NCBI GenBank assembly: GCA_951406725.2
Contig: OX597824.1
Coordinates: 45,942,001-46,006,000 of the forward strand
DNA from: Octopus vulgaris
Taxonomy: Eukaryota
Reading direction: 5' to 3'
Length of the DNA stretch: 64,000 nt
Shown here: piece after piece, positions 416 through 63,834 of the stretch
Layout: the number at the start of each line of letters is the position of its first letter
How positions within the stretch are numbered: position 1 is the stretch's first letter
Program-made: the position numbers and the translations under genes
Notes under the pieces: model-generated
The model's database searches: none
The model's input: the letters and a program-made list of their open reading frames with translations, nothing else
Told to the model about the DNA's origin: nothing

Positions 416-1609
416 TTACCATGATTTTTATGTCTCAATAGGATAATTTGCTACTTAAGTTTTAATTTTTGAACTAATAACCTCCTCTATTAAGAAAAGG
501 TATTGTTTGATATTTACATCTACACATCATTTCGATGGGTTTGATCTCTAATCCTTATTAGGTGTCCTAATCTAGATGGGATTTAAATGGGAGAATTGTA
601 CTTCTAAACTAGGATTTATAACACTCTTAACTCTTAAGCTACTGATGGATGTTCAAGTACATAATATTTTAATTAGACTCAGTTTAGAAATTAAGTTTCC
701 TAATTCAAATCTAGTTTGAAGCTTTGAACTAACTTAATGACAATCAAAGGTTAACCAATTGAAATATTGTTTAGCTGTAAATATTTAACACATTTTGTTT
801 CTAAAAATAGAGATTAATAGTCTAAAAATATTTTTAAATGCATTGTAGTTCTATTGAATGTTGGAGACAAATTGTAAACAAAAGCATTGTTGTGAAAGAA
901 ATATACTTTAAAGTTCAGTGGTTGGTCTATTTTATTGCTGATTGATGGTAGTGTGGAGACTAACTAAATCTCAACTGTTTCCAGAAGCAAATGCCTAGCC
1001 CCAAGTACATTTACAGCCTCTCCACTCATGTAGATGCTATGAAGTAATGATAATATATATCAATATATCTGCAGCATCCTTGGAACCTGAGGGAATGCCA
1101 GATATTGGTTAAGTATGACCATACAAATCTACCTTTGGGTCAGTCTTCCTTGAATGTTCTTTAGGGGTTTACTCCCTTAGCCTTTCCTTAAACGCTCTAT
1201 AAATTGCCTCACAAAGCAGCAGAGATTTATTATTATAGTGAGTGTGGTTTGTGCAGAGCCAGTCCTACTCTCTCGTTTTTCAAACATCTGCTATTTCAAA
1301 CATATGCCACGAACCCAGAAGTTATCAGAATGCAGGATTTGTATGGAAATACTTTCTTTTAGATAAGCAGCTCAAGAGGTGAAGGGCATCATCTTCCCGA
1401 GGTGTGTTGTTGTTTTGGAGACAATTCTATAACATGCTAATTAACTCAAAGCTGGGGCCCTGATAAGTGCTATTACTCAGGAAACAAAAGTGGTTAACAG
1501 GTGGTTCCACACAATGCAAAACCCTGGAGCTCTTGAACCAGGGTGCCACCACTAGATGTTGTTTAAAGCCATACCCAGGACATATTAAAGTTGAGTACCC
1601 TTAAATATT

Positions 1610-1768
1610 TCCAAGGTAAATGATTTTTGTATGTCTAAGAATTAACTGGAAAAACAACAAAACATTTTCTTGAGTGGTTTGAAGATTACTTCATGTGTGA
1701 AACTAGAGAACACTGCAACTCTGCTGGCCTTGATCCAAAGTATAAAATATTTTTGATATTAGATAATC
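1610..1768 (+). pseudogene. pogo/Tigger-like transposase fragment (DDE_1 region), copy 1
   Basis: Translates to IFLEWFEDYFMCETREHCNSAGLDPKYKIFLILDN, resembling the pogo F.xWF...LLILDN motif; duplicated at ~3243-3357. Confidence 0.55.
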
Positions 1769-2039
1769 AAGGATAAATTTCAAGAACACAAGAACCTTTT
1801 GAGTCATATCTGCACTGAGAAAAATGATGAATCTTTAGATTTTACAAATTCATAAATATACGACTTAAAATTACTGCTTTTGTATTATATTAAATAACTG
1901 TTTTTTCATATGGTTATGTAGCAACCTCATTAGCAACTTCAAGTTTGAATGCATTTCACAATGAATGTGAAATTTCTGCTGGGCAAAGGGTTCTTCATGC
2001 CTGTTTTGTATGCTGAAAATATTTATGGATATTCAATAC

Positions 2040-2300
2040 TTTACTTTTCATTGACCTTGTCAAAAAACCGCAGAGGTTTAAGAGGTGTAGATATGGATGC
2101 ATTAAAAAACATTTAGACAAGTTTTCAAAGGAGATACCGGATAAACAAACAGAAATGCAGTTAAGGTCAGTTTTGTCCAGCTCAATGATTTACCAGAAAA
2201 GAGGGAGATGGGAGTGAAATTAATTAAAATATCACACCAATGGCAACGCCCCATCATGGCGACAGCCTGTTGTTGAAACAAATGAAATTAAAGAAGGAAT
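2040..2300 (+). mobile_element. Decayed LINE 3'-end fragment
   Basis: Frameshifted translation resembling LRGVDMDALKKHLDKFSKEIPD, a typical RT-ORF C-terminus of CR1/Jockey-group LINEs. Confidence 0.35.
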
Positions 2301-3242
2301 ATATTCAACACTGAAAGTATGTTTCCATACAACAATAGCTGGTTAGTTATTTGTTTTCTGCATTTAACATATCTGCATAAACTTTATTTCACATTGTGAA
2401 ATGTTATGTTTTTAAGACCAGCTTTTGAACTTAACAGTGTATCATATTGTTTGCATACAGTGACTCAAGGCCACAGATCTAATGTGAAATGATATACACA
2501 CAGCAATGAAATCACGGAGTCATTAGAGTGTTGGACAGTTATATCGATCTCAGTATTCAACTGATGCTTATTTTATTGACTCCAAAAGGGTGAAAGGCAA
2601 AGTTAACCTCAGTGGAATTTGAACCCAGAATGTGAAGATAGTGGTATTTGTTTGAACTCTCTGTGCCCTGAGTTCAAATCTTGCCAAGATCAAATTCACC
2701 TTTCATCCTTTTAGGGTTGATAAAAAGTACCAATCCAAGTTGGTGAATTTGTGGTATTTTTTCTGGCTCTTTGCATTGTGAGTTGAAATCCATCCATTAC
2801 CTAATTAGTTGGTAGACTTAACCTATTGTTCTCACTACCCAACATTGTACATGGTTTTAGCAGAGTGCACTCTGTTGCAAGCATTTCAGATCTGGTTTGA
2901 AGTTACATACCTTTCTCCCACCAATCTCAGAGAGAGTCCTTGTAACAAGTTATGAGCATTGCCTTCCCTCTAAAATATATAGACAATTTAATAAAGTAGA
3001 GTCTCTCACTGGTTTGGACTTCACAAAACTGGCACTCCACAGTCTGACATTTCCTGTGGTTTTGCTTATTTTGAATCTGTTACCATTAGTTTGTTGATAT
3101 GCTATGAAGGTGAAACTGTTAGCAGTGATAAGCTGTTAAGCTTCGTTTACCCTAGCCAAGTGTTTTGCTGATGTTTCTGATATTTAGCTGGGTTACAGCC
3201 CTTCAGAATGTCATCCAAGGGACTAATAAAAAAAAATTCTTA

Positions 3243-3490
3243 AACAATAAAATATTTTCTTGAATGGTTTGAAAATTACTTCATGTGTGAAACTAGAGAA
3301 CACTGCAACTCTGCTGGCCTTGATCCAAAGTATAAAATATTTTTGATATTAGATAATTGTTTGGCACACCTCAAAGTAGATCTCTTTGATAAAAGACAAT
3401 GTTTTTGGAATATAACTCCTTACTCTCTACACCTCTGTGATTCAGCTCTATAACCAGGCCATACTTTGTTCATTGAAATCTAAATACTCT
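3243..3490 (+). pseudogene. pogo/Tigger-like transposase fragment, copy 2 with continuation
   Basis: IFLEWFENYF...LILDNCLAHL, then TSVIQLYNQAILCSLKSKY, matching the pogo LDNCSAH and TSLIQPMDQGII motifs. Confidence 0.6.
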
Positions 3491-3811
3491 GTTTACATAA
3501 TATTTAGATTCCAATGACTCCTTAGGGACCAATTTATGCTAACTGGCATTTTTCCATCATCTGGTAATGGCCATATTCCAAGGTTGTCTGATTTAAGAGA
3601 TTTAACCTGTACTCATTTATTGATACATAGAGATGAACAACAAAGAGGACACTGATGGGATTTGAACTAATAAAACTGAAGAACAAAAGTTAAGATAATT
3701 AAAATCATTAATCAGTTGTTCTGCTATTTCTGTTATTCTGGTAAGCTATATAATATTAAGACTAGGTCCATTTTGATCAGGGGTACGTAGAAATATGAAA
3801 TCCATCTAGTA

Positions 3812-4030
3812 ATGATGATTTCAAATTTTAGCACAAGGCCAGAAATTTCAGTACGAGGGGTTAAGTCAGTTATATAGATCTCAGTGTTCAACTGATGCTT
3901 ATTTTATTGGCTCCAAAAGGGCGAAGGCAAAGTTAACCTCAGTGGAGTTTGAACCCAGAATGTGAAGATAGCTGAAATGCCACCAAGCATTTTGCTCGGT
4001 GTGTTAACAATTCTGCCAGCTCATCACTTT
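3812..4030 (-). mobile_element. SINE family B
   Basis: Homologous to 200-415 and 59673-59888. Confidence 0.7.
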
Positions 4031-6131: not shown

Positions 6132-7401
6132 ATGTGAACAACTGACGATATATAAGTATGTGTATGTGTGTGTGTGCGTGGTGGTGGGGGTGGGGGTGGT
6201 TAGCTTTGTGCTTGTGTTTGTCGCCCAGTATCACTTGACAACCAGTGTTGGTGTTTTTATGTCCCTGTAACTTAGCGGTTCGACAAAAGAGACCGATAAA
6301 ATAAACGCCAGGCTTAATAACGATTCATTTGACTAAGAACTTGTCAAGGTGGTGCCCCAGCATGGCTGCTGTCTAATGACTGAAACAAGTAAAAGATGAA
6401 AGGCAAAAGAAATATAAATATATATAAATAAATAAAGAGAAGAGACAAGCTTTTAAATACAACCAATTTTGTTGGCTGAATTAAGTCTCAGGGAAGCAAA
6501 AGGACAGAAAATCACTACATCATTGCTCATTATTGACTTTTAGCATTGAAACTGTCTTTTCACATCCTCTCTCATGAGTAAGTTGAACAGGAAACAAGAT
6601 ATGACTAAACTTTATATAATGATTAAGATCAGTGTGAATGTGTGTGTGTGTGTTTGCGTGTGTGTGCATGTGTGTGAGTGTGTTTGTGTGTGCACATGCA
6701 AGTGTATGTGTGCGTCTGATTATGCAGGGAGAGAGAGAGAGAGAGAGAGAGGAGAATGAGAGAGAGTGATACAGAGAGAGAGAAGGAGGAAGAAATATTT
6801 ATTCATATTGAGGTGATAATGACAATCTTCCTTTTGAGAATTATCAAGGGAAGTAACTGGTCTTCTGCTGAATTCGACCTTTTCCGAATCAGTTTAAATC
6901 TACTTGAAAGATTTCACAAGTAATTGTTGTTATAGTTGCTGCTGTTACTACAGTAGTAATGGTGGTAGCGTTGTTGTTTTTGTTGTTATTACTTTTTTGA
7001 CTTCATTTACATTGTTGTTAAATAGCATTATTTTGTTCTGCTTCAGTGAAACCATAACTAAAGCTCTTCTGAATAAGGATATCATCTGCAGAATAAAGAA
7101 ATTTATTCAGCTTTAGCAAATGAATCAACCAATAGCAAATATAAAGAAAGGCTTTAAACCCCTCAAAATATGGATACCAATAAATATTCATTCCAATATA
7201 TATATATGAGGAGGTACCCAAAAATAACTGGAAACATTCTCTGTGGAACAAGCCTGTTGTAGTTCAGGCTTCTGCTACTAGAAGCCACTTTATGCGACCC
7301 TCAGGTATCAGTCTGCCAACTAGTGGTATCCTGCAAAGTCGTACTGCCACATGCTGCATCTTTGTTTTGCAATGCTTCTCCCCTGTTCATTGATTTTTGC
7401 G

Positions 7402-7533
7402 ATGGTTGAAACGAAGGAATTGTGTGCTTCCATGAAATTCTGTTTCCTGTTGAGGAAAACCGTGGCCAAAACAGTTGTCATGCTTCAAACAACTTACAAG
7501 GATGCTGCCATGAGCAAAACACAAGTTTACAAG
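7402..7533 (+). pseudogene. mariner transposase N-terminal (HTH) fragment
   Basis: MVETKELCASMKFCFLLRKTVAKTVVMLQTTYKDAAMSKTQVYK resembles the mariner IKFCF..GKT..E...ML..AYG..AMSKTQVY.W motif. Confidence 0.7.
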
Positions 7534-8139
7534 CGACATTCAGTCAACATCTTGGTATTTGGGGTGATTACTAGTGATGGTAGTGTTAAGTCTCCATTCA
7601 CCTTCCCACACAACCTCAGACTCAACACAGAAGCCTACATAAAGTGCCTGGAGGAGGTAGTGCTGCCCTGGGCCAAGAGGGTTGCTGCTGGAAGACCCTA
7701 TGTCTAGTAACAGGACTCTGCACCATGCCACAAAAGCAGGAGAACTCAGTCATGGCTGTCAGACAATTTTTGTGACTACATCACACCTAATATTTGGCCA
7801 CCTAACTCCCCAGACTGCAACTCCCTTGATTATTATGTATGGGATGCAGTTGAGTGAGAGATCAACAAAACTCCTCGTAACACCAAAGATGAATGGAAGG
7901 CAAGGATTATGGCGGCATTCCCAACATAAGCAAGGAGACCATCTAGAAGAGTTGCAGGAGATTCTGAAGTCGTCTGGAGGCTGTGGTTGAAGTCAATGGC
8001 AATTTTATTGAATATATTTACTCTTTAGTATTTCCAGATATTTTTATGTAATTTTGGTAAATATATCTGTTAAAATGAGATGTCAGTATTATTTTCATTT
8101 TTGTGTTAACTTAGACAACAGTTTATTCACCACACCCTG
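7534..8139 (+). mobile_element. maT/DD37D transposon 3' portion with right TIR
   Basis: QDSAPCH...WPPNSPDCNSLD with 37 residues between the catalytic aspartates; in-frame stops; ends caccctg followed by TA. Confidence 0.8.
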
Positions 8140-12620: not shown

Positions 12621-13256
12621 CATGGTCTGATCAATAAGTATTTCAACTATTGCCATAGTAATGAAGCTAAAGCACACAGTGTGAAGCTGCTTCACACAGA
12701 TTGACCTTTGCTGTGCATGCACACTCAGTTTTAACATTGTAGCTCACTTCAGCTGTTTACAGCAGTGCTTGGAAGGAAGGTGTGTAGCGTGTGATCATTA
12801 CATTGACTATGATAGAGGAAGCTGAGCAGAGAATCTACATCAAATTTTGCCAAAAGCTTGCAATAGCTGCTCAGAGGTCTATGTAAAGTTTTCAAAAAGT
12901 TTTCATTGTCCTCGATACAATCAAGATCTTGTGCAACTGAAACCTGTCTTTTTGGTCAGTTGAAAGCAGTTTTGGCACAAAATTTGCTGACATGCATCTC
13001 ATACCCAAATCTTCAGTGATAATGGACTGAACTGAACTGTAACTAATCTGCACAGCCTTTGATAACTCACGGATGGTGATTTGACAATTTCCCCGCACAG
13101 CTGCATGCACATCTGTGATGTTTTTCTCAGTTCTGCTGATTGTGGGGCTCCCAGAATGTTTGTCAATATCGACAATTTTTGGCCATCCTGGAAATGTCTG
13201 AATCACTCGTACACTTGTGTGCAGGTCATACACTCCTCTCCATACACTTTCTGTAT
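12621..13256. mobile_element. mariner 5' fragment with internal inversion
   Basis: The plus strand has a TIR-like ggtctgatcaataag and EQRIYIKFCQKL. The continuation QKVYGEECMTCTQVYE...ITIRELS...FVPKLL is on the minus strand at ~12893-13256. Confidence 0.75.
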
Positions 13257-13346
13257 GTGAGTATATAATGGAGTTAGAGAGTGAAAGAAAGCAAAGTATA
13301 TGAATATATAATATCTGTAGAAAGGTTGTTGTTGTGTGTGTGGGTG

Positions 13347-13437
<91 letters not shown>

Positions 13438-18004: not shown

Positions 18005-18163
18005 AGGAACAGTTATAGCTGTGTGGTTAAGCAGTGTGGTTCTCCACTACATGGTTTCAGGTTCAGTACCACTGTGTGGTACCTTAGCCAAGCATCTTCT
18101 GCTATAGACCTGGGATGAACAAAACCTTGTGAATGGATTTGATACATGGAAACTGAAAGATCC

Positions 18164-18168
<5 letters not shown>
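18005..18168 (+). mobile_element. SINE family A 5' half, host of the large insertion
   Basis: agctgtgtggttaag head, B-box ggttcagtacc and ggaaactgaaaga, followed by (TA)n. Confidence 0.7.
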
Positions 18169-18211
<43 letters not shown>

Positions 18212-18480
18212 TCATCATCATCATCATCATCGTCGTTAACGTCCGCTTTCCGCGCTAGCACGGGTTGGACGGTTTGACCGGGTCTGGGAAGCCAGGGGCC
18301 GCACCAGGCTCCAGTCTGAATCTGGCAGAGTTTCTACGGCTGGATGCCCTTCCTAACGCCAACCACTCCGTGAGTGGATTGGGTGCTTTTTACGTGCCAC
18401 CTGCACAGGGGCCGGAGGGTCCGGCATCGTCACGATCGGTTCGAGCATTTTAACGTGTCAGCGGTACGGGGGCAACGAAG

Positions 18481-18528
18481 TCCGGGGTACTTTGGGGATC
18501 CAGGGTACTTTGGGGATCCGGGGTACTT
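18481..18528. repeat. 18-bp tandem repeat, ~2.7 copies
   Basis: tccggggtactttgggga / tccagggtactttgggga / tccggggtactt. Confidence 0.9.
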
Positions 18529-18592
18529 AGAATGAGTAGGGGGTATGTGGAATTGCTGCAGAAAGCAGCCCGGGTCTTTGTAGTTACAGCAT

Positions 18593-18948
18593 TTATCGTC
18601 ACTGAGTAACGTAATTAGGTAGAGGAAAGAAATACAGATATTCTAGAGTTGAGTTGGGGAGGGGAGGTCCAGTTGAGGCGGGTAATATAGGAGAGCAACC
18701 AGTGGGGAAGGTTGGGGTAAGGAGGAACGATGGCAGGAAGGGTTGGTGTAGGTTCCTAAGAAATAAAGACATTCGTTATCGTCACTGAGTAACGTTATTA
18801 GGTAGAGGAAAGAATACAGATATTCTAGAGTTGAGTTGGGGAGGGGGGTCCAGTTGAGGTGGGTAATATAGGGGAGCAACCAGTGGGGAAGGTTGGGGTA
18901 AGGAGGAACGATGGCAGGAAGGGTTGGTGTAGGTTCCTAAGAAATAAA
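18593..18948. repeat. ~183-bp tandem duplication, 2 copies
   Basis: ttatcgtcactgagtaacg starts at 18593 and 18776; both copies end ggttcctaagaaataaa. Confidence 0.9.
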
Positions 18949-19182
18949 AACGTAGGATATTACGAGGCGGGAGGGTGCTAAAGGGGATAGTCGGAATGAG
19001 GCAGTGTCAGGAGGAAGCGTAAGATCGGTGGGCAGTTGATGAGCTATGGCGCTAGCAGCTTGTCTTTTCACAGTGAAAGCATATGAGGAGAAGGGGTAGT
19101 GAGGGGAGGAGGAGGGAGTAGGGCGTACCCGGTGTAGATGAGTAAGGCGTATCCGGTGTAGATGGTGAGGACAGGGTATACT

Positions 19183-19306
19183 GGTATTGGTGGTGGGGGG
19201 TGAGGAACAGTGTTCACCGGTATTGGTGGTGTTGGCGGTGAGAACAGTGTTCACCGGTATTGGTGGTGGGGGTGAGAACAGTGTTCATCGGTATTGGTGG
19301 TGGGGG
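19183..19306. repeat. ~35-bp minisatellite, ~3.5 copies
   Basis: Unit ggtattggtggtgggggtgagaacagtgttcacc with length variation. Confidence 0.85.
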
Positions 19307-19321
19307 TGGGGGGGCGGGCGC

Positions 19322-22300
19322 ACCGCCAATGGCTGAAAGATGGGAAGAGATGGGATTACGGCTTGAGGTAGCCTAGCCTAAGGTTAAATTTTGTAGAGAG
19401 AGAGATAGAAAGATAAATCAAGTTATGGCGAAGGCTTGAAAGTAGCCTAAAAAGGTTAAATTTTCGTAACAATGTATGAATAAACGTAGTAACAACGAAT
19501 AAAATAGTAAGATAAATTTTTAAGAACTTGCTGCGGACATCGATCGGGAGTTGAAATTGAAGAAGAAAGTAAGTTGAATTGGGAATTTAAATTGTAGAAT
19601 CGTAATGGTAAGAGGAGGAAAAAGACCGCCAATGGCTGAAAGATGGGAAGAGATGGGATTACGGCTTGAGGTAGCCTAGCCTAAGGTTAAATTTTGTAGA
19701 GAGAGAGATAGAAAGATAAATCAAGTTATGGCGAAGGCTTGAAAGTAGCCTAAAAAGGTTAAATTTTCGTAACAATGTATGAATAAACGTAGTAACAACG
19801 AATAAAATAGTAAGATAAATTTTTAAGAACTTGCTGCGGACATCGATCGGGAGTTGAAATTGAAGAAGAAAGTAAGTTGAATTGGGAATTTAAATTGTAG
19901 AATCGTAATGGTAAGAGGAGGAAAAAGACCGCCAATGGCTGAAAGATGGGAAGAGATGGGATTACGGCTTGAGGTAGCCTAGCCTAAGGTTAAATTTTGT
20001 AGAGAGAGAGATAGAAAGATAAATCAAGTTATGGCGAAGGCTTGAAAGTAGCCTAAAAAGGTTAAATTTTCGTAACAATGTATGAATAAACGTAGTAACA
20101 ACGAATAAAATAGTAAGATAAATTTTTAAGAACTTGCTGCGGACATCGATCGGGAGTTGAAATTGAAGAAGAAAGTAAGTTGAATTGGGAATTTAAATTG
20201 TAGAATCGTAATGGTAAGAGGAGGAAAAAGACCGCCAATGGCTGAAAGATGGGAAGAGATGGGATTACGGCTTGAGGTAGCCTAGCCTAAGGTTAAATTT
20301 TGTAGAGAGAGAGATAGAAAGATAAATCAAGTTATGGCGAAGGCTTGAAAGTAGCCTAAAAAGGTTAAATTTTCGTAACAATGTATGAATAAACGTAGTA
20401 ACAACGAATAAAATAGTAAGATAAATTTTTAAGAACTTGCTGCGGACATCGATCGGGAGTTGAAATTGAAGAAGAAAGTAAGTTGAATTGGGAATTTAAA
20501 TTGTAGAATCGTAATGGTAAGAGGAGGAAAAAGACCGCCAATGGCTGAAAGATGGGAAGAGATGGGATTACGGCTTGAGGTAGCCTAGCCTAAGGTTAAA
20601 TTTTGTAGAGAGAGAGATAGAAAGATAAATCAAGTTATGGCGAAGGCTTGAAAGTAGCCTAAAAAGGTTAAATTTTCGTAACAATGTATGAATAAACGTA
20701 GTAACAACGAATAAAATAGTAAGATAAATTTTTAAGAACTTGCTGCGGACATCGATCGGGAGTTGAAATTGAAGAAGAAAGTAAGTTGAATTGGGAATTT
20801 AAATTGTAGAATCGTAATGGTAAGAGGAGGAAAAAGACCGCCAATGGCTGAAAGATGGGAAGAGATGGGATTACGGCTTGAGGTAGCCTAGCCTAAGGTT
20901 AAATTTTGTAGAGAGAGAGATAGAAAGATAAATCAAGTTATGGCGAAGGCTTGAAAGTAGCCTAAAAAGGTTAAATTTTCGTAACAATGTATGAATAAAC
21001 GTAGTAACAACGAATAAAATAGTAAGATAAATTTTTAAGAACTTGCTGCGGACATCGATCGGGAGTTGAAATTGAAGAAGAAAGTAAGTTGAATTGGGAA
21101 TTTAAATTGTAGAATCGTAATGGTAAGAGGAGGAAAAAGACCGCCAATGGCTGAAAGATGGGAAGAGATGGGATTACGGCTTGAGGTAGCCTAGCCTAAG
21201 GTTAAATTTTGTAGAGAGAGAGATAGAAAGATAAATCAAGTTATGGCGAAGGCTTGAAAGTAGCCTAAAAAGGTTAAATTTTCGTAACAATGTATGAATA
21301 AACGTAGTAACAACGAATAAAATAGTAAGATAAATTTTTAAGAACTTGCTGCGGACATCGATCGGGAGTTGAAATTGAAGAAGAAAGTAAGTTGAATTGG
21401 GAATTTAAATTGTAGAATCGTAATGGTAAGAGGAGGAAAAAGACCGCCAATGGCTGAAAGATGGGAAGAGATGGGATTACGGCTTGAGGTAGCCTAGCCT
21501 AAGGTTAAATTTTGTAGAGAGAGAGATAGAAAGATAAATCAAGTTATGGCGAAGGCTTGAAAGTAGCCTAAAAAGGTTAAATTTTCGTAACAATGTATGA
21601 ATAAACGTAGTAACAACGAATAAAATAGTAAGATAAATTTTTAAGAACTTGCTGCGGACATCGATCGGGAGTTGAAATTGAAGAAGAAAGTAAGTTGAAT
21701 TGGGAATTTAAATTGTAGAATCGTAATGGTAAGAGGAGGAAAAAGACCGCCAATGGCTGAAAGATGGGAAGAGATGGGATTACGGCTTGAGGTAGCCTAG
21801 CCTAAGGTTAAATTTTGTAGAGAGAGAGATAGAAAGATAAATCAAGTTATGGCGAAGGCTTGAAAGTAGCCTAAAAAGGTTAAATTTTCGTAACAATGTA
21901 TGAATAAACGTAGTAACAACGAATAAAATAGTAAGATAAATTTTTAAGAACTTGCTGCGGACATCGATCGGGAGTTGAAATTGAAGAAGAAAGTAAGTTG
22001 AATTGGGAATTTAAATTGTAGAATCGTAATGGTAAGAGGAGGAAAAAGACCGCCAATGGCTGAAAGATGGGAAGAGATGGGATTACGGCTTGAGGTAGCC
22101 TAGCCTAAGGTTAAATTTTGTAGAGAGAGAGATAGAAAGATAAATCAAGTTATGGCGAAGGCTTGAAAGTAGCCTAAAAGGTTAAATTTTCGTAACAATG
22201 TATGAATAAACGTAGTAACAACGAATAAAATAGTAAGATAAATTTTTAAGAACTTGCTGCGGACATCGATCGGGAGTTGAAATTGAAGAAGAAAGTAAGT

Positions 22301-25300
22301 TGAATTGGGAATTTAAATTGTAGAATCGTAATGGTAAGAGGAGGAAAAAGACCGCCAATGGCTGAAAGATGGGAAGAGATGGGATTACGGCTTGAGGTAG
22401 CCTAGCCTAAGGTTAAATTTTGTAGAGAGAGAGATAGAAAGATAAATCAAGTTATGGCGAAGGCTTGAAAGTAGCCTAAAAAGGTTAAATTTTCGTAACA
22501 ATGTATGAATAAACGTAGTAACAACGAATAAAATAGTAAGATAAATTTTTAAGAACTTGCTGCGGACATCGATCGGGAGTTGAAATTGAAGAAGAAAGTA
22601 AGTTGAATTGGGAATTTAAATTGTAGAATCGTAATGGTAAGAGGAGGAAAAAGACCGCCAATGGCTGAAAGATGGGAAGAGATGGGATTACGGCTTGAGG
22701 TAGCCTAGCCTAAGGTTAAATTTTGTAGAGAGAGAGATAGAAAGATAAATCAAGTTATGGCGAAGGCTTGAAAGTAGCCTAAAAAGGTTAAATTTTCGTA
22801 ACAATGTATGAATAAACGTAGTAACAACGAATAAAATAGTAAGATAAATTTTTAAGAACTTGCTGCGGACATCGATCGGGAGTTGAAATTGAAGAAGAAA
22901 GTAAGTTGAATTGGGAATTTAAATTGTAGAATCGTAATGGTAAGAGGAGGAAAAAGACCGCCAATGGCTGAAAGATGGGAAGAGATGGGATTACGGCTTG
23001 AGGTAGCCTAGCCTAAGGTTAAATTTTGTAGAGAGAGAGATAGAAAGATAAATCAAGTTATGGCGAAGGCTTGAAAGTAGCCTAAAAAGGTTAAATTTTC
23101 GTAACAATGTATGAATAAACGTAGTAACAACGAATAAAATAGTAAGATAAATTTTTAAGAACTTGCTGCGGACATCGATCGGGAGTTGAAATTGAAGAAG
23201 AAAGTAAGTTGAATTGGGAATTTAAATTGTAGAATCGTAATGGTAAGAGGAGGAAAAAGACCGCCAATGGCTGAAAGATGGGAAGAGATGGGATTACGGC
23301 TTGAGGTAGCCTAGCCTAAGGTTAAATTTTGTAGAGAGAGAGATAGAAAGATAAATCAAGTTATGGCGAAGGCTTGAAAGTAGCCTAAAAAGGTTAAATT
23401 TTCGTAACAATGTATGAATAAACGTAGTAACAACGAATAAAATAGTAAGATAAATTTTTAAGAACTTGCTGCGGACATCGATCGGGAGTTGAAATTGAAG
23501 AAGAAAGTAAGTTGAATTGGGAATTTAAATTGTAGAATCGTAATGGTAAGAGGAGGAAAAAGACCGCCAATGGCTGAAAGATGGGAAGAGATGGGATTAC
23601 GGCTTGAGGTAGCCTAGCCTAAGGTTAAATTTTGTAGAGAGAGAGATAGAAAGATAAATCAAGTTATGGCGAAGGCTTGAAAGTAGCCTAAAAAGGTTAA
23701 ATTTTCGTAACAATGTATGAATAAACGTAGTAACAACGAATAAAATAGTAAGATAAATTTTTAAGAACTTGCTGCGGACATCGATCGGGAGTTGAAATTG
23801 AAGAAGAAAGTAAGTTGAATTGGGAATTTAAATTGTAGAATCGTAATGGTAAGAGGAGGAAAAAGACCGCCAATGGCTGAAAGATGGGAAGAGATGGGAT
23901 TACGGCTTGAGGTAGCCTAGCCTAAGGTTAAATTTTGTAGAGAGAGAGATAGAAAGATAAATCAAGTTATGGCGAAGGCTTGAAAGTAGCCTAAAAAGGT
24001 TAAATTTTCGTAACAATGTATGAATAAACGTAGTAACAACGAATAAAATAGTAAGATAAATTTTTAAGAACTTGCTGCGGACATCGATCGGGAGTTGAAA
24101 TTGAAGAAGAAAGTAAGTTGAATTGGGAATTTAAATTGTAGAATCGTAATGGTAAGAGGAGGAAAAAGACCGCCAATGGCTGAAAGATGGGAAGAGATGG
24201 GATTACGGCTTGAGGTAGCCTAGCCTAAGGTTAAATTTTGTAGAGAGAGAGATAGAAAGATAAATCAAGTTATGGCGAAGGCTTGAAAGTAGCCTAAAAA
24301 GGTTAAATTTTCGTAACAATGTATGAATAAACGTAGTAACAACGAATAAAATAGTAAGATAAATTTTTAAGAACTTGCTGCGGACATCGATCGGGAGTTG
24401 AAATTGAAGAAGAAAGTAAGTTGAATTGGGAATTTAAATTGTAGAATCGTAATGGTAAGAGGAGGAAAAAGACCGCCAATGGCTGAAAGATGGGAAGAGA
24501 TGGGATTACGGCTTGAGGTAGCCTAGCCTAAGGTTAAATTTTGTAGAGAGAGAGATAGAAAGATAAATCAAGTTATGGCGAAGGCTTGAAAGTAGCCTAA
24601 AAAGGTTAAATTTTCGTAACAATGTATGAATAAACGTAGTAACAACGAATAAAATAGTAAGATAAATTTTTAAGAACTTGCTGCGGACATCGATCGGGAG
24701 TTGAAATTGAAGAAGAAAGTAAGTTGAATTGGGAATTTAAATTGTAGAATCGTAATGGTAAGAGGAGGAAAAAGACCGCCAATGGCTGAAAGATGGGAAG
24801 AGATGGGATTACGGCTTGAGGTAGCCTAGCCTAAGGTTAAATTTTGTAGAGAGAGAGATAGAAAGATAAATCAAGTTATGGCGAAGGCTTGAAAGTAGCC
24901 TAAAAAGGTTAAATTTTCGTAACAATGTATGAATAAACGTAGTAACAACGAATAAAATAGTAAGATAAATTTTTAAGAACTTGCTGCGGACATCGATCGG
25001 GAGTTGAAATTGAAGAAGAAAGTAAGTTGAATTGGGAATTTAAATTGTAGAATCGTAATGGTAAGAGGAGGAAAAAGACCGCCAATGGCTGAAAGATGGG
25101 AAGAGATGGGATTACGGCTTGAGGTAGCCTAGCCTAAGGTTAAATTTTGTAGAGAGAGAGATAGAAAGATAAATCAAGTTATGGCGAAGGCTTGAAAGTA
25201 GCCTAAAAAGGTTAAATTTTCGTAACAATGTATGAATAAACGTAGTAACAACGAATAAAATAGTAAGATAAATTTTTAAGAACTTGCTGCGGACATCGAT

Positions 25301-28300
25301 CGGGAGTTGAAATTGAAGAAGAAAGTAAGTTGAATTGGGAATTTAAATTGTAGAATCGTAATGGTAAGAGGAGGAAAAAGACCGCCAATGGCTGAAAGAT
25401 GGGAAGAGATGGGATTACGGCTTGAGGTAGCCTAGCCTAAGGTTAAATTTTGTAGAGAGAGAGATAGAAAGATAAATCAAGTTATGGCGAAGGCTTGAAA
25501 GTAGCCTAAAAAGGTTAAATTTTCGTAACAATGTATGAATAAACGTAGTAACAACGAATAAAATATTAAGATAAATTTTTAAGAACTTGCTGCGGACATC
25601 GATCGGGAGTTGAAATTGAAGAAGAAAGTAAGTTGAATTGGGAATTTAAATTGTAGAATCGTAATGGTAAGAGGAGGAAAAAGACCGCCAATGGCTGAAA
25701 GATGGGAAGAGATGGGATTACGGCTTGAGGTAGCCTAGCCTAAGGTTAAATTTTGTAGAGAGAGAGATAGAAAGATAAATCAAGTTATGGCGAAGGCTTG
25801 AAAGTAGCCTAAAAAGGTTAAATTTTCGTAACAATGTATGAATAAACGTAGTAACAACGAATAAAATAGTAAGATAAATTTTTAAGAACTTGCTGCGGAC
25901 ATCGATCGGGAGTTGAAATTGAAGAAGAAAGTAAGTTGAATTGGGAATTTAAATTGTAGAATCGTAATGGTAAGAGGAGGAAAAAGACCGCCAATGGCTG
26001 AAAGATGGGAAGAGATGGGATTACGGCTTGAGGTAGCCTAGCCTAAGGTTAAATTTTGTAGAGAGAGAGATAGAAAGATAAATCAAGTTATGGCGAAGGC
26101 TTGAAAGTAGCCTAAAAAGGTTAAATTTTCGTAACAATGTATGAATAAACGTAGTAACAACGAATAAAATAGTAAGATAAATTTTTAAGAACTTGCTGCG
26201 GACATCGATCGGGAGTTGAAATTGAAGAAGAAAGTAAGTTGAATTGGGAATTTAAATTGTAGAATCGTAATGGTAAGAGGAGGAAAAAGACCGCCAATGG
26301 CTGAAAGATGGGAAGAGATGGGATTACGGCTTGAGGTAGCCTAGCCTAAGGTTAAATTTTGTAGAGAGAGAGATAGAAAGATAAATCAAGTTATGGCGAA
26401 GGCTTGAAAGTAGCCTAAAAAGGTTAAATTTTCGTAACAATGTATGAATAAACGTAGTAACAACGAATAAAATAGTAAGATAAATTTTTAAGAACTTGCT
26501 GCGGACATCGATCGGGAGTTGAAATTGAAGAAGAAAGTAAGTTGAATTGGGAATTTAAATTGTAGAATCGTAATGGTAAGAGGAGGAAAAAGACCGCCAA
26601 TGGCTGAAAGATGGGAAGAGATGGGATTACGGCTTGAGGTAGCCTAGCCTAAGGTTAAATTTTGTAGAGAGAGAGATAGAAAGATAAATCAAGTTATGGC
26701 GAAGGCTTGAAAGTAGCCTAAAAAGGTTAAATTTTCGTAACAATGTATGAATAAACGTAGTAACAACGAATAAAATAGTAAGATAAATTTTTAAGAACTT
26801 GCTGCGGACATCGATCGGGAGTTGAAATTGAAGAAGAAAGTAAGTTGAATTGGGAATTTAAATTGTAGAATCGTAATGGTAAGAGGAGGAAAAAGACCGC
26901 CAATGGCTGAAAGATGGGAAGAGATGGGATTACGGCTTGAGGTAGCCTAGCCTAAGGTTAAATTTTGTAGAGAGAGAGATAGAAAGATAAATCAAGTTAT
27001 GGCGAAGGCTTGAAAGTAGCCTAAAAAGGTTAAATTTTCGTAACAATGTATGAATAAACGTAGTAACAACGAATAAAATAGTAAGATAAATTTTTAAGAA
27101 CTTGCTGCGGACATCGATCGGGAGTTGAAATTGAAGAAGAAAGTAAGTTGAATTGGGAATTTAAATTGTAGAATCGTAATGGTAAGAGGAGGAAAAAGAC
27201 CGCCAATGGCTGAAAGATGGGAAGAGATGGGATTACGGCTTGAGGTAGCCTAGCCTAAGGTTAAATTTTGTAGAGAGAGAGATAGAAAGATAAATCAAGT
27301 TATGGCGAAGGCTTGAAAGTAGCCTAAAAAGGTTAAATTTTCGTAACAATGTATGAATAAACGTAGTAACAACGAATAAAATAGTAAGATAAATTTTTAA
27401 GAACTTGCTGCGGACATCGATCGGGAGTTGAAATTGAAGAAGAAAGTAAGTTGAATTGGGAATTTAAATTGTAGAATCGTAATGGTAAGAGGAGGAAAAA
27501 GACCGCCAATGGCTGAAAGATGGGAAGAGATGGGATTACGGCTTGAGGTAGCCTAGCCTAAGGTTAAATTTTGTAGAGAGAGAGATAGAAAGATAAATCA
27601 AGTTATGGCGAAGGCTTGAAAGTAGCCTAAAAAGGTTAAATTTTCGTAACAATGTATGAATAAACGTAGTAACAACGAATAAAATAGTAAGATAAATTTT
27701 TAAGAACTTGCTGCGGACATCGATCGGGAGTTGAAATTGAAGAAGAAAGTAAGTTGAATTGGGAATTTAAATTGTAGAATCGTAATGGTAAGAGGAGGAA
27801 AAAGACCGCCAATGGCTGAAAGATGGGAAGAGATGGGATTACGGCTTGAGGTAGCCTAGCCTAAGGTTAAATTTTGTAGAGAGAGAGATAGAAAGATAAA
27901 TCAAGTTATGGCGAAGGCTTGAAAGTAGCCTAAAAAGGTTAAATTTTCGTAACAATGTATGAATAAACGTAGTAACAACGAATAAAATAGTAAGATAAAT
28001 TTTTAAGAACTTGCTGCGGACATCGATCGGGAGTTGAAATTGAAGAAGAAAGTAAGTTGAATTGGGAATTTAAATTGTAGAATCGTAATGGTAAGAGGAG
28101 GAAAAAGACCGCCAATGGCTGAAAGATGGGAAGAGATGGGATTACGGCTTGAGGTAGCCTAGCCTAAGGTTAAATTTTGTAGAGAGAGAGATAGAAAGAT
28201 AAATCAAGTTATGGCGAAGGCTTGAAAGTAGCCTAAAAAGGTTAAATTTTCGTAACAATGTATGAATAAACGTAGTAACAACGAATAAAATAGTAAGATA

Positions 28301-29334
28301 AATTTTTAAGAACTTGCTGCGGACATCGATCGGGAGTTGAAATTGAAGAAGAAAGTAAGTTGAATTGGGAATTTAAATTGTAGAATCGTAATGGTAAGAG
28401 GAGGAAAAAGACCGCCAATGGCTGAAAGATGGGAAGAGATGGGATTACGGCTTGAGGTAGCCTAGCCTAAGGTTAAATTTTGTAGAGAGAGAGATAGAAA
28501 GATAAATCAAGTTATGGCGAAGGCTTGAAAGTAGCCTAAAAAGGTTAAATTTTCGTAACAATGTATGAATAAACGTAGTAACAACGAATAAAATAGTAAG
28601 ATAAATTTTTAAGAACTTGCTGCGGACATCGATCGGGAGTTGAAATTGAAGAAGAAAGTAAGTTGAATTGGGAATTTAAATTGTAGAATCGTAATGGTAA
28701 GAGGAGGAAAAAAGACCGCCAATGGCTGAAAGATGGGAAGAGATGGGATTACGGCTTGAGGTAGCCTAGCCTAAGGTTAAATTTTGTAGAGAGAGAGATA
28801 GAAAGATAAATCAAGTTATGGCGAAGGCTTGAAAGTAGCCTAAAAAGGTTAAATTTTCGTAACAATGTATGAATAAACGTAGTAACAACGAATAAAATAG
28901 TAAGATAAATTTTTAAGAACTTGCTGCGGACATCGATCGGGAGTTGAAATTGAAGAAGAAAGTAAGTTGAATTGGGAATTTAAATTGTAGAATCGTAATG
29001 GTAAGAGGAGGAAAAGACCGCCAATGGCTGAAAGATGGGAAGAGATGGGATTACGGCTTGAGGTAGCCTAGCCTAAGGTTAAATTTTGTAGAGAGAGAGA
29101 TAGAAAGATAAATCAAGTTATGGCGAAGGCTTGAAAGTAGCCTAAAAAGGTTAAATTTTCGTAACAATGTATGAATAAACGTAGTAACAACGAATAAAAT
29201 AGTAAGATAAATTTTTAAGAACTTGCTGCGGACATCGATCGGGAGTTGAAATTGAAGAAGAAAGTAAGTTGAATTGGGAATTTAAATTGTAGAATCGTAA
29301 TGGTAAGAGGAGGAAAAAGACCGCCAATGGCTGA
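19322..29334. repeat. Tandem array of 33 x 303-bp units plus a terminal 15-bp copy of accgccaatggctga
   Basis: accgccaatggctga starts at 19322, 19625, 19928 ... 29320. Only four variants were seen: A-run indels near 22176, 28711 and 29012, and a G>T at 25566. Confidence 0.97.
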
Positions 29335-29400
<66 letters not shown>

Positions 29401-30013
29401 AGATAGATGTTTCCTAATACCCTAGTCACATTTGGTGACAGTTAGAATCCTCTTTTTTGGTGAAACATTGCAAACTGGTGTTTATATAAATGTTATATAT
29501 ATATGGCATAAGATGTGGATGACTTCTTGCAATATACTCTGTGGAGTATGGAAGCGTGTGCATATGTGTGTAAGTCATCTAGGAGTCCATAAGTCAGGAA
29601 AAAAATGCACTCGTATATTTGTTGATAATGTACAGTATTTTATATCCATTATGGCCGATCTTACCAATCAGTTTTGTGCTAGGGAATCAACAGTGTTTGG
29701 TAACAATCTGATCATGCAACTCTACGCTCATCTGAGGTAGCTGGTATGGAATGAAATAGGGCAACTGCTCTCTAATGTTGAAGGTGAATAGACACACCCA
29801 GTTTGCAGTTGCTGTGAATTCAGAGGAATATAGTGTCTGGGCAGATACTGTAGTAGCTCTCAATTATGCAACTGCTTGTACTCTGTGCAAGGGAAATGTG
29901 TATAGGTCATTATAACTATAAGAATATGCTGTATGACACACCATAAAATAAGAGGAAATAAAATTTTAAGGATGTACCAGTCTCCATATTCTCAGTTGTT
30001 ATAATTATTGCCC

Positions 30014-30072
<59 letters not shown>

Positions 30073-31392
30073 AATTTTATAGTTCCTGTGCATCTTCTAA
30101 ATATAAATACTACTTTCTCTGATAACTTTCCTGTTATTCCACTGCACCTCTTGTGTGTCCACAGATTACACTGAATATGCCATATGGAATTCCTGCCTAG
30201 ACCTTTCCTACAAACTGAGCAGGGCCATTTACCTGAAGTGGGTAGGGTCCTCTCTGTTTTCTTGCTCACTAAAATCTTAATCTTTGCTAAGTTAACCTAA
30301 AGCTCTTAGGTTTAGCTTCCACATTCAGAATTTCTTTTCTAGCTCTGATATAGAATCTGCTATGAGGGCAAGATTATCAGCATATAGAAGTTTTCAGGGG
30401 CTGCCAGTCTTGAACTCCTCTGTTATAGCCCTGAAGGACAATGGTTAAAAGGAGGAGACTGAAGACTGAGCCTTAATAAATGCCTGATTTTCTCAAATGC
30501 CTTGGAGGCTCATTAGTGGTAGTGGATAATTTTTGAAATCTAAGGGACCAAATTAGTAGTGGAGGAGGATGTATGAAAAGTGTAATGTCTAGAATAAGAA
30601 TAGGTTGAAGAAAATTCAGAGAGCTTTTACCTCTGAATTCAACCAAAGGTCTCTCCCTCCAAGTCAAAGGAAGATTGTATGATGCATACATATGAACAGA
30701 AATTCTATATTGTAGAGAAACATGGGCCCTGAATGCAGAGAACATGCAAAGGCTAGAGAGGAATGAGGCTAGTATGCTCTGCTGGATGTGCAATGTCAGT
30801 GTACATTTGGAATGCTAGTGTGCTGAGAGAAAAATTAGGCATAAGAGGAATTAGATGCAGTGTGCAAGAGAGAAGACTGTGCTGGATTGGTCATGTGGTG
30901 TTGATGGCTGTTGACAGCTCCATAAAGAAGGGCCAATCACTCAAAGTGGATAGAACTCATGGAAGAGGAAGACCCAGGATGACATGGGACAAATTACTGA
31001 AGGACAACTTCAAGACACTGAACCTTATGGATGAGATGGCAAAGGACTGAGATATCTGGCACATTGCTGTACTCAAAAAGACCCATCCTCCACAGCAGAA
31101 GTATTAAGGTTTCTTCCCCGGATGAAGAGGATTGGTTTGCAAAAGACCTGTGCTTGTATCTTGTAAAAAACACATGTGCTGGCTCCATGTAACAGTACTC
31201 ATGCAAGTGCCATGTTAAAAGCAACCAGCACACACTGTAAAGTGGTTGGCATTAGGAAGGGCATCCAGCTGCAGAAACCAAGCCAAATCAGACTGGAACA
31301 TACTGCAGCTCTCCTGCTTGCTAGCTCTGGTCAAACCATCCAACCCATACCAGCATGGGACATGGATGTTAAAGGATGATGATGATGATGAT
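30073..31392 (+). mobile_element. RTE-X-like LINE, 5'-truncated with inverted 5' segment
   Basis: Minus 30073-30472 encodes LLYADNLALIA and WPCSVCRKG...WTHKRCSG. Plus 30473 onward continues DFLKC...LREKLGIRGIRCSVQERRLCWIGHV...GRGRPRMTW, then a 3'UTR and (GAT)n tail. Confidence 0.85.
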
Positions 31393-31607
31393 GAAAATAT
31401 ATATTTACACACACACACACACATACACACGTGCATGCACATGTGTGTTAGATAGCTACATCGATGGATAGAAAACCCTTTATGGATGAGAAACCCAAGG
31501 TAATCCCATAAACCGGCCTTCCCCATTTTTGATATATACTGCTCTACATCTTAGAGTGGGCTTCTTCTTTTGTGTTTTTGTTTCTTACAGACGATATATA
31601 TATACAT

Positions 31608-32030
31608 ACTCTTTTACTCTTTACTCTCTTTTACTTGTTTCAGTCATTTGACTGCAGCCATGCTGGAGCACCACCTTTAGTCAAGCAAATCAACCCCAGG
31701 ACTTATTCTTTGTAAGCCTAGTACTTATTGTATCAGTCTCTTTTGCTGAACTGCTAAGTTACAGGGACGTAAACGCACCACCATCATCCATTGTCAAGCG
31801 ATGGGGGGGGAGGATAAACACAGACACACAAACATATACACATACATACATATATATATATATTCGTATATACGACAGGCTTCCTTCAGTTTCCGTCAAC
31901 CAAATCCACTCACAAGGCTTTGGTTGGCCCGAGGCTATAGTAGAAGACACTTGCCCAAGACATGCAGTGGGAATGAACCTGGAACCATGTGGTTGGTAAG
32001 CAAGCTACTTACCACACAACCACTCCTGTG

Positions 32031-33229: not shown

Positions 33230-33475
33230 TATTTTCCATGCTGGCATGGGTCAGATGGTTTGACTGGAGATGATAAGCTAGAGAACTGCACCAAGCTCCA
33301 ATTGTCTGTTTTGGTTTGGTTTCTACTGCTGGATGCCCTTCCTAACACCAACTACACCACTGAGTGTACTGGGTGCATTTTATATGTCACTGGCATGGGT
33401 ACCTTTTATGTGTCACCAGCCAGGGTGCCTTTTACATGTCACTGGCATGGGCATCACCAGCACTGGCCATGACCA
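33230..33475 (-). mobile_element. RTE-X-like tail fragment
   Basis: ttccatgctggcatggg...ctggatgcccttcctaacaccaac, homologous to 18240-18400. Confidence 0.7.
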
Positions 33476-34958: not shown

Positions 34959-35221
34959 GAAAAAATTATGCTTAATCAAAATCAGTATTATTTTTTATAA
35001 TCTTGTTTGGGACAATGGGAGACAACTTGAGATGCGTTTCAGTTTTTTGTGTCTCATCAGTGGAAATGCTTCAAACTCACCATAGCTTGTTCACAATACA
35101 AAAATTTGATAAGAAAACAAAACATTTACGAAATTTAATATTTTAGCAATGTCACTTCTTTCTTTACACAATGATACTTTCTGCAGAGAGAGAGAGGGGG
35201 GAGATAGGGAGGGAGAGAGAT

Positions 35222-36036
35222 GCAGTTTTGTACTTACTCCTTCCACAACACTAATCTCAAAAAGTCTTCTTGTGAATGTGATCTGGGCGTTATTGTCGAC
35301 AGTGATTTACGTTGGACAAAACACATTGCTAAATTTGCTAAAAAGGCTGAGGGTGTCTTGGCATCACTCACCAAGTCCTTTATGAGCCGTTCTCTGGCTA
35401 TCTATCTGCAGCTTTATATAGCTATGGTACGACCTCACCTGGAATTTGCATCACCAGTCTGGAACCCCTATCTTGCCCAGGATATTAATTGTCTGGAAGC
35501 CATTCAGCGATGTGCAACCAAGAGAATACCCTCCATCGGGCATTTGCCATATTCTGAACGCCTTACTTCCCTGGGCATAGATACAGTGAAACTCCAACAT
35601 CTGGCAGCTAACTTGGCAGATACCCATAAAATTATCAACCATCTTACAAACAATAACTCTGAGCACCTTTTCAAACTCCATCTGTCTGACACCCGCGGAC
35701 ATGTTTACAAAGTCAGAAAACAGCACAGCTCCCATGACTTTTGGAAACATTTTTTCATGCTAAGAGTTACTGAAGCATGGAACAAACTGCCGGCATCAGT
35801 AGTTAGTTGTTGGAGCACTGCATCCTTCAAAACTTCTATGCTTCCTGAGATTCGCCAACACTACACCTGATTTTCTCCCCTCCATACACATGCAAGCATG
35901 TATCTGACTCATACACTGTTCACTTTCGAGACATTTCTACATTACTGCTTATACTTTATGCGCACTTTTTGACAAGTTGTGGTGCACCTAAGCACTGTAT
36001 ACAATAATTTCATTATTATTATTATTATTATATTAT
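35222..36036 (+). mobile_element. CR1-like LINE 3' end (RT C-terminus, 3'UTR, (ATT)n tail)
   Basis: ORF 35220-35870 contains DLGVIVDSDL, LYIAMVRPHLEFASPVWNPY, LPYSERL, TRGH, FFMLRVTEAWNKLP. Confidence 0.9.
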
Positions 36037-37316: not shown

Positions 37317-38200
37317 CAGGGTGTCCCAAAAATAAGGCAATCAGCATTTCTCAATTTTGCCAAAGCATAATATTGTTATATTTCGAGTTCAAGCATTGCA
37401 ATGCAATGGTAATGGAAAAACAATTATGACACTACTATATTTACTTGATATGACCACCTCTGTTTTGAGTTACAGCCTTAAATCTAGGTATGAATACTTC
37501 ACATGCAGCACTCAGCTGTTCTTGTGGAACTGAAGCTCATTTCTGGTGCAGTTTTGCCTTCAGAGCATTGAGCGAAACATGAGGAGTCCTTGAGACCCTC
37601 ATCTCCAAATTGGACCAAACAGAAAAATTCAGTAGGTTCAGATCAGGGTTTCTTGAGAGCCATAAATCCTTGTCTACAAACGATGAAATGTTTTTTTCTG
37701 AATCTAGTGCTGTGTCTGTTTGGAGCTGTGAGATGGTGCTGAGTCCTGTTGGAGGATCCAAGGAGCACCTTGAAAGTAATCATTTGCCCATGGAAGCAAT
37801 TCAGCTTCCAGAATGTTGCTATTGTATCGGTGGGTGTCAAATTTAACACCCAAGGACATAAAAACGAAGGGAGACCTTCCAGTAGATGTCACAGCTGCCA
37901 AAAAGATAACTGACTGGGGAATTTGATGTTGATTTACGAGTCTACCCTTGGCGGAACCAGATACACTCCAAAGTTGGTCATTCTGGTGGTTTACTGTCTG
38001 TTTGATGTCAAATTTCTTTTCATTAGTGAAACCAGGCTGGGCTGCATGCCTTCAACCAACTGATGCTGGATAAGATGACTTCTCTCCAGTCTGATGGCTT
38101 TATAAACTTGTGTGATGTCATAACAACAGATCATCTTGTAGGGGTAGGTCCTGAGATCCTCCTTCAGCACTCAATACATTGATGTTCAGCTTCTTTTAAC
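37317..38200 (-). mobile_element. Decayed maT-like (DD37D-type) transposon
   Basis: TIR-like cagggtgtcccaaaa; fragments ILEAELLPWANDYFQGAPWILQQDSAPSH and LWLSRNPDLNLLNFSVWSNLE. Confidence 0.7.
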
Positions 38201-54423: not shown

Positions 54424-54854
54424 TCATCATCATCATTCAACATCTGCTTTCCATGTTGCATGGGTTGGATGGTTTGACAGGAAATGGCTAGCCAGAAGAC
54501 TGCACCACGCTCCAGTGTCTGTTTTGGCAGAGTTTTTTTGGCCAGATGCCCTTTCTAACACCAATCACCTTGCAAAGTAGACTGAGTGCTTTCTTTGTGG
54601 TACCAGCACTGGCGACGTATGTTTTGGAATGGTTTTTACAGCTGGATGTCCTCCAAAACATCAACCACTTTACAGTGTGGACTGAATGCTTTTTATGTGT
54701 TACCAGCACAGGTGGAGGTCATCAAGTAACTTGCAAGACATTAGAGGAGGTGGCCTTGTGCAGGTGAGGAGAGGAATAAAAGCAGGTATCTTGCTGTAGA
54801 GGAGATACATGGTTATCCAGTCAGAGGGAGATAGTAAGAGAAAGAGAGAGAAAG

Positions 54855-63707: not shown

Positions 63708-63834
63708 ATCATCATCATCATCATCATCACCATCATCGTTTAACGTCCGCTTTCCATGCTAGCATGGGTTGGACAATTTGACTGAGGACTGGCGAACCAG
63801 ATGGCTGCACCAGGCTCCAATCTGGTGCAGCCAT
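63706..63834 (-). mobile_element. Short 5'-truncated RTE-X-like tail copy next to (TG)n
   Basis: (CAT)n cgtttaacgtccgctttccatgctagcatgggttgg, close to 18208-18320. Confidence 0.8.

Follow-up and report, generated by a model that had tools for sequence, protein, structure and literature searches.

A young, probably internally deleted RTE-type LINE with a long 5' monomer array in Octopus vulgaris

Results

The window, i.e. the whole stretch of DNA analysed in this work, comprises 64,000 nucleotides of the Octopus vulgaris genome (GCA_951406725.2, contig OX597824.1, positions 45,942,001 to 46,006,000 of the forward strand). On its minus strand, between positions 18208 and 29334, lies a repetitive element in which an array of 303-bp monomers is followed by a 1,114-bp body and a (GAT)8 3' tail (18208..18231). 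Comparison with the rest of the genome makes it highly probable that we are dealing with a young copy, internally deleted, of an intact long interspersed nuclear element (LINE) of the RTE type, present in the same genome, of which the array, the 5' untranslated region (UTR), the last codons, the 3'UTR and the tail were kept.

The array (19322..29319, minus strand) counts 33 tandem units in the assembly, the number already given in the initial annotation; 29 of them share one sequence, three depart from it by one base in the length of a homopolymer, and the remaining one has a single substitution. The element begins, at 29320..29334, with the last 15 nt of a truncated monomer. The monomer is AT-rich (36% GC), has a counterpart of 336-352 bp in the parent LINE described below and is a putative promoter unit. 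The body contains tandem repeats with periods of 34, 24, 181 and 18 bp, so that the small repeats initially listed as about 35, 24, 183 and 18 bp do exist, but the first has a period of 34 bp and the third of 181 bp. The observed/expected CpG ratio is 1.35 in the monomer and 0.80 in the body. It is 0-0.27 in the old LINE tails at 31215, 33230 and 54424 and 0.19-0.23 elsewhere in the window, in agreement with the initial remark that CpGs are kept in this span and lost in older tails. The longest stop-free run between 18208 and 20000 is 115 codons. A scan of the element found no transfer RNA (tRNA) gene and no tRNA-, 5S- or 7SL-derived head, and its Rfam scan gave no family above threshold and no match near a gathering score. 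As for a fold similar to the hepatitis delta virus ribozyme, there was no Rfam match, and none was seen in a crude descriptor scan of seven regions performed without a positive control.

On the left, the element is flanked by the 5' half of an old repeat resembling a short interspersed nuclear element (SINE) (18020..18207, plus strand), 74% identical to the copy at 31621-32030 and ending in an (AT)n run (18168-18209). On the right there is only a (GT)n(TA)n microsatellite (29335..29405), and no target-site duplication can be resolved. The other half of the SINE-like repeat is not found on the right.

Both the body and the monomer are dispersed in the source genome (G000). The best-scoring matches of the body (40 of 1,267 candidates scored, the latter being first-look candidates and not a copy number) were 96-100% identical and lay on many contigs, and the same was observed for the monomer (35 of 240 scored). 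Monomers were present at 27 of the 30 body loci examined, the other three being truncated inside the body; conversely, the array ran into the body at 19 of 20 monomer loci. The exact 20-mer spanning the monomer-body junction occurs 84 times at 83 loci, while its reversed control does not occur. Dispersed loci with the same junction, variable monomer counts and 5' truncations were thus all found, and the initial view of a young, dispersed, non-coding retroposon family is confirmed. Downstream of the junction, the deleted body was found at 61 of the 83 loci, a full LINE open reading frame (ORF) at 20 and something else at two. The set of distinct loci used hereafter comprises 116 loci (76 deleted, 37 parent and 3 unclear).

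We also considered the monomer as a free satellite. Among the matches listed, this was not supported, since body or parent sequence adjoins the monomers at the 19 loci mentioned above and in all seven additional arrays that were not on the junction list. At a single locus, L066 (G000:C29:27270137-27278260), monomers are instead joined to another short repeat made of a duplicated unit of about 190 bp, a microsatellite and an RTE tail 85% like that of the element; L066 is a chimera, for which a template switch may be responsible.

The parent LINE is organized as monomers, the same 5'UTR as the element, an upstream frame of 61 codons, a long frame of some 1,100 codons and a 3'UTR followed by (GAT)n, a microsatellite tail common to parents and derivatives. 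Its monomers measure 336-352 bp, a few copies having longer or shorter variants. The long frame (1,101 amino acids) matches the Pfam families Exo_endo_phos and RVT_1 above cut-off and weakly a PHD finger, located after the reverse transcriptase (RT). This frame is open over at least 1,000 codons in 21 of the 35 copies examined, and 18 parent ORFs differ from one another by 0-10 substitutions (median 5) over 3,003 columns. Two parent copies, L265 and L266 (G000:C28), are truncated at the same point and share the 5' flank but have different 3' flanks, which may reflect a chimeric source or a duplication.

The body of the element could be read along this parent from end to end on the minus strand. 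Positions 18232..18457 are the parent 3'UTR, 237-239 of 241 aligned bases being identical in 19 of 19 parent copies. Positions 18458..18592 are what remains of the last 45 or so codons of the long ORF, as seen from the translations of parents and element and from tblastn (92%). Since the 3' break falls inside the end of this ORF, the 18-bp repeat (18481-18528) is the STPDPQ coding repeat of the parent and not a variable number tandem repeat (VNTR). The deletion junction lies at 18592..18593, and its 5' break is 3 nt ahead of the upstream ATG. With respect to the parent, 3,153 bp are missing (3,151-3,154 bp in 15 of the 16 parents measured and 3,141 bp in one; three of 19 were unmeasurable) and 181 bp are duplicated. 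In fact, 18593..18949 holds two copies, with a period of 181, of the last 181 bp of the 5'UTR; all 74 deleted copies compared have two unit starts and all 24 parents have one. The remaining 5'UTR (18950..19321) includes the 24-bp repeat (19116-19164), the 34-bp repeat (19164-19308) and a GC-rich core (19289-19321), and over the stretch tested it is identical to the 19 parents at 297-306 of 306-311 aligned bases. The monomers are more distant, with 8-12 substitutions per full unit, plus indels. GATA and ATG are found within a few bases on both parental sides of the break, and these short matches suggest that the deletion may have been made by a template switch.

The deleted form has multiplied as a unit. 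Its exact junction (21-mer) occurs 173 times in the genome and the undeleted one (23-mer) 35 times, with controls at 0; both counts are lower bounds, because five further parents among those listed lack the exact 23-mer. The median divergence is 0.41% between deleted copies and 0.85% between deleted and parent copies, with fixed differences, and the deleted copies split into two sub-lineages, 31 long ones including the window copy and 43 without about 128 bp, in a 74-copy sample that over-represents copies like that of the window. A single origin of the deletion followed by independent spread is the simplest reading. Since all parts come from one parent, with 3,153 bp deleted and one junction shared, the element is a bipartite non-autonomous RTE: it has the 5' and 3' parts of one LINE, its ORF is deleted and it has spread as a unit. 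The near-identical 3' end and the shared target preference point to mobilization in trans by the parent protein.

Twenty of the 24 sequencing runs listed (organisms A, B and C and one metagenome) contain part of the stretch. In a DNA-type run of organism B the deletion junction is spanned by a contig that reaches 25 nt to one side and 36 nt to the other, which is below the 31-nt rule, and in the run of organism C only the parent continuation was present at 18592. The contigs of these runs end before passing through the microsatellites on either side of the element.

As regards its clade, the parent has a single long ORF with an apurinic/apyrimidinic endonuclease and RT, and its ORF1 is rudimentary or absent. 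This is how the RTE clade is delimited in the parts covered of PMC3905857 and PMC13708176, and according to the former RTE differs from RTEX in having an ORF1 that is at most rudimentary. No SGNH-esterase ORF1, the mark of RTEX, was found in the parent, whose upstream frame has just 61 codons; for this reason the parent fits RTE rather than RTEX. Its nearest homologues are 53-59% identical and mostly unnamed, and searches of solved structures yielded only L1 and R2.

Two other candidates for the partner were rejected. The initial annotation related the 3' end of the element to the tail of the LINE at 31215-31392 of the window. It is indeed a LINE-type tail, matching the LINE end at 31202-31394 at 75%, but this LINE is an old relative (50-64% amino acid identity to the parent) and not the partner: its identity to its 39 other best-scoring relatives is 80-85%, and the tails of 20 long-frame relatives are mostly 78-87% like that of the element. 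Five of the primers published for RTE-2_OV match the parent with 6-7 mismatches, which is the background level.

Both deleted and parent copies strongly prefer TA-type microsatellites as flanks. The tail is followed by TA-type sequence in 55 of 75 deleted copies and in 24 of 29 parents, as compared to 4% of random window positions, and ahead of the 5' end TA-rich sequence was seen in 37 of 49 and 14 of 24 copies, respectively (random, 1.7%). Of the 116 loci, 38 were skipped in the mapping of 5' ends (open, gapped, body-truncated or unmapped). Among the 78 mappable ends, 18 fall at monomer positions 2-21, a number reached in none of 2,000 uniform simulations, and a second hump is seen at positions 93-148.

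Two exact 16-mers detected 824 and 172 monomers, about 1,000 together, and the array survey was based on the first 100 matches listed for each. The largest arrays have 40 units in a parent copy and about 46 and 121 units in deleted copies. The latter (G000:C2:127450220-127490400), without internal gap, spans 39 kb and consists of a uniform proximal block and a noisier distal one; arrays of satellite size thus exist, as anticipated by the initial proposal that the array is expandable and can seed satellite DNA. Several contigs have arrays of 23-46 units, and every such array is built from a unit class of its own. In 31 deleted arrays we counted 0.19 substitutions per unit pair within arrays and 4.3 between arrays. 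Moreover, 21 of 27 pairs of copies having no substitution in the body differ in the majority monomer class, and eight classes are common to several loci. Being uniform inside, different between loci and unlike even in body-identical pairs, the arrays have likely been regrown from a single unit around the time of each insertion. Singletons in arrays amounted to 19/58,888 in 14 deleted copies and 10/13,125 in four parents, rates of the same order as the private rates outside the arrays of the same copies (5/5,423 in deleted bodies and 4/11,959 in parent ORFs).

Some arrays were unusual. The parent copy L250 (G000:C1:70539800-70549400) has 16 units of 86 bp, a sub-piece of the monomer, and enlarged units of 472-499 bp were found at L237, L244, L249 and G000:C6:86462317-86472400. 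Arrays or 5' ends adjoin assembly gaps at L069, L224, L247 and L255, so that true array lengths may be greater.

Tandem units are present also on sister LINEs. Full-length copies among the relatives of the old LINE of the window begin with such units, followed by the same GC-rich core as in the element body. In sister RTE-type LINEs, whose identity to the parent is about 76%, units of about 109, 162, 303-313 and 426-490 bp precede this core. The sister loci form four groups apart from that of the parent; 20 of 46 gave no core match under the pattern used, including the 162-bp type, in which the core is a variant. Some sister units are distantly related to one another (69-79%), none to the parent unit. 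Sister subfamilies with intact frames of 1,040-1,060 codons are found at L270-L289 and L151-L180. In seven units we counted 11 YY1-like motifs, as compared to 1.25 in shuffled sequences (a post-hoc test). In the sisters the core runs on into an ETS-like ACCGGAAGT, and a TATA-like site was noted in several of their monomers. These are motifs that we take to be YY1 (in invertebrates), GC box, ETS and TATA sites. The YY1 core is as quoted in the parts covered of PMC6454616 and PMC5381506.

Discussion

The observations above can be arranged into a possible life cycle. The deletion and the 181-bp duplication would have arisen once, through a template switch at short matches located next to the upstream ATG. 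By analogy with mouse L1, each monomer of the long 5' array would be an RNA polymerase II promoter unit, and such arrays of about 300-bp repeats likely serve as promoters; a truncated copy would therefore stay transcribable. The RNA would likely start in a monomer and likely be copied in trans by the endonuclease-RT of the parent, which would recognize the retained 3' end and prime reverse transcription in (TA)n. The array would be regrown from one unit at or shortly after insertion. A plausible route for this, falling only just short of probable, is that the 5' monomer is copied again while reverse transcription or second-strand priming takes place; early unequal crossing-over is possible and to be taken seriously; whole copying from long-array sources we consider unlikely. 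The R2 enzyme is reported to jump end to end between templates in the part covered of PMC2718515, and both growth models are discussed for the mouse in that of PMC6454616.

According to one alternative, arrays grow solely after insertion, by unequal crossing-over or replication slippage, independently of retrotransposition. Arrays of 39 and 14 kb are indeed long for one reverse-transcription event, L223 contains a repeated four-unit block, L073 and L242 are mosaics, the singleton rate of the arrays is below that of the body in deleted copies, and a 50-monomer mouse promoter is read in this way in the part covered of PMC6454616. On the other hand, most arrays hold a single class from end to end, and hardly any internal variants are shared; the copies, whose bodies differ by 0.4%, are very young, which leaves little time for many rounds of growth; and in the four parents the array rate is not below the ORF rate. 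We tend not to favour this alternative, which nevertheless has a real chance of being correct.

Inheritance of whole arrays from a few long-array sources, shortened only by 5' truncation, could account for the eight shared classes and for the six of 27 body-identical pairs with a common class, and long arrays exist as potential sources. It appears unlikely, since the other 21 pairs differ in the variant borne by most units of the array, so that regrowth from one unit is needed between source and copy. The length and uniformity of the 33-unit array might also be an assembly artefact, as arrays adjoin gaps at L069, L224 and L247, three of the four variant units of the window differ in homopolymer length alone, and the distal part of the 121-unit array looks noisy. 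We regard this as improbable: one window unit has a private substitution, the 23-46-unit arrays lie on several contigs with a class each, and the summed contig depth in two DNA-type runs is several times higher at monomer than at body positions, which is weak evidence; furthermore, the family and its parent stand irrespective of the unit count.

The initial reading, an SVA-like composite of unrelated modules (satellite monomer and VNTRs) on a borrowed LINE tail, agrees with the outward anatomy (several tandem repeats, no ORF and a tail 75% like the nearby LINE) but is hardly tenable unless the parent loci are assembly chimeras, because at least 20 parent loci carry every module, with monomer, GC box, 34- and 24-bp repeats, 181-bp unit, 18-bp repeat and tail collinear in one LINE and about 96-99% identical over aligned bases, the 18-bp repeat is coding sequence of the parent, and there is no tRNA gene and no Rfam family above threshold. 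Primate SVA is non-coding, CpG-rich and LINE-dependent and contains tandem repeats, and the octopus element resembles it in all these respects. In SVA, sequences from unrelated donors are patched together and followed by a poly(A) tail; the octopus element, unlike it, derives from a single LINE and ends in (GAT)n, and the clear target-site duplication of SVA is not seen.

Returning to the internal-deletion copy with regrown arrays, several observations weigh against this interpretation or parts of it. The clade of the parent was assigned from anatomy rather than from a phylogeny including named elements. Target-site duplications were looked for without a clear result, one match of 21 nt lying in repetitive DNA and the others being of at most 9 nt. 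The cluster of 5' ends is a soft one: four ends at position 14 begin in a longer monomer variant, some loci came from a search with the full monomer, and TA matches to the target could explain both clusters of 5' ends, including the one at 93-148. In the 14 deleted copies singletons are rarer in the arrays than in the bodies (P=0.047), which leans to some growth after insertion, and the four-unit block, the two mosaics and the two-part 121-unit array indicate that rearrangement at the DNA level also acts. The YY1 motif was picked after viewing the sequences; of the seven units, two are homologous to each other and two lack the motif. Contigs of the runs guessed to be RNA bridge the junction by just 30 and 17 nt.

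A deletion derivative is in itself an ordinary kind of element. In the part covered of PMC5786205, bipartite non-autonomous LINEs are described from RTE, Ingi, Vingi and R2, and Bov-A (from Bov-B), WALLSI3, RIME and the Vingi derivatives as internally deleted elements. Like Bov-A and WALLSI3, the octopus element joins the 5' and 3' parts of one autonomous LINE, has lost the ORF and ends in a microsatellite. Unlike these short, SINE-sized elements, it carries the tandem array of its parent and measures 11 kb here and about 40 kb elsewhere; the word "tandem" is absent from the text of PMC5786205. What is unusual is the 5' tandem array common to parent and derivative, with other monomers on the sisters.

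Arrays of 5' monomers are called a special feature of mouse L1 promoters in the part covered of PMC6454616, and the 5'UTRs of clade-1 L1 of lizards show no tandem duplication according to that of PMC5381506. As in mouse L1Md, a variable number of tandem monomers precedes a tether and the ORF, 5' ends lie inside monomers, YY1-like motifs occur and related subfamilies have unlike monomers. Very long arrays are rare in L1Md (50 units), and the 50-monomer array is described in the same part of PMC6454616 as not homogeneous, with regrowth or retention of 5' monomers called unresolved; arrays of 20-120 units are not rare here and are nearly uniform. The octopus LINE also differs in its single-ORF RTE-type clade, its host, its AT-rich monomer (36% GC) and the predicted status of its promoter role. 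That an invertebrate RTE lineage has independently evolved the monomer-promoter system of mouse L1, with unlike monomers on its sister subfamilies, an RT that rebuilds the array from one unit at each insertion, as uniform arrays of up to tens of kb in one step, and a deleted family that would be a natural minimal template doing the same, is a possible but doubtful proposition.

With RTE-2_OV, a full-length octopus RTE (PMC9115989), the parent shares a single ORF of about 1,100 amino acids with endonuclease, RT and zinc finger. The 3'UTR of RTE-2_OV is described there as mostly microsatellite and, in the part of the paper covered, no monomer array is mentioned; the primers mismatch the parent. 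The part covered of a 2026 octopus repeat annotation (PMC13282606) lists recently active RTE families and does not contain the words monomer, non-autonomous or deletion. Nothing relevant was present in the parts covered of PMC12988792, PMC8490949 and PMC11203168. We found no report of this family or of RTE 5' monomer arrays in the open literature outside Repbase and Dfam, in which an entry may exist.

The same architecture is thus met in another clade, in very young copies whose unit variants mark the locus, with intact parents and a minimal non-coding derivative together, and this makes the question of monomer regrowth directly testable. The data also show a route from a LINE 5'UTR to satellite-sized arrays (about 1,000 monomers), which adjoin assembly gaps and would be annotated as tandem repeats.

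Other features of the window and of the collected loci

At L234 and L235 (G000:C19:47673373-47689895), two deleted-family copies lie head to tail, the downstream one with monomers shortened to 276 bp. At L035, about 2750-3385, an older short element ends in an RTE tail and looks body-like upstream by eye, while blastn against the collected loci matched the tail alone; it is possibly an earlier deletion family. Locus L063 (G000:C2:58922811-58930922) harbours another LINE, CR1/L2-like by eye, which ends in an (ATCA)n tail and whose endonuclease-RT frame of 1,040 codons (809-3928) is intact; a deleted-family copy sits there in (TA)n, between that LINE and a second copy of its 5' part.

In the window, the old RTE-type relative spans 30090-31392, with 30090-30441 inverted relative to 30504-31392, and is thus a 5'-inverted insertion. 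Further old RTE tails, 74-84% identical to the element tail, are located at 33233-33390, 54423-54612 and 63711-63824. A 220-codon fragment of another LINE RT (35208-35867, plus strand) is 32% identical to the intact L063 frame. The 290-codon open frame at 47428-48297 (minus strand) resembles by eye a Tc1-type transposase, and shorter mariner-like frames occur at 7324-7704, 12895-13353 and 37707-38051.

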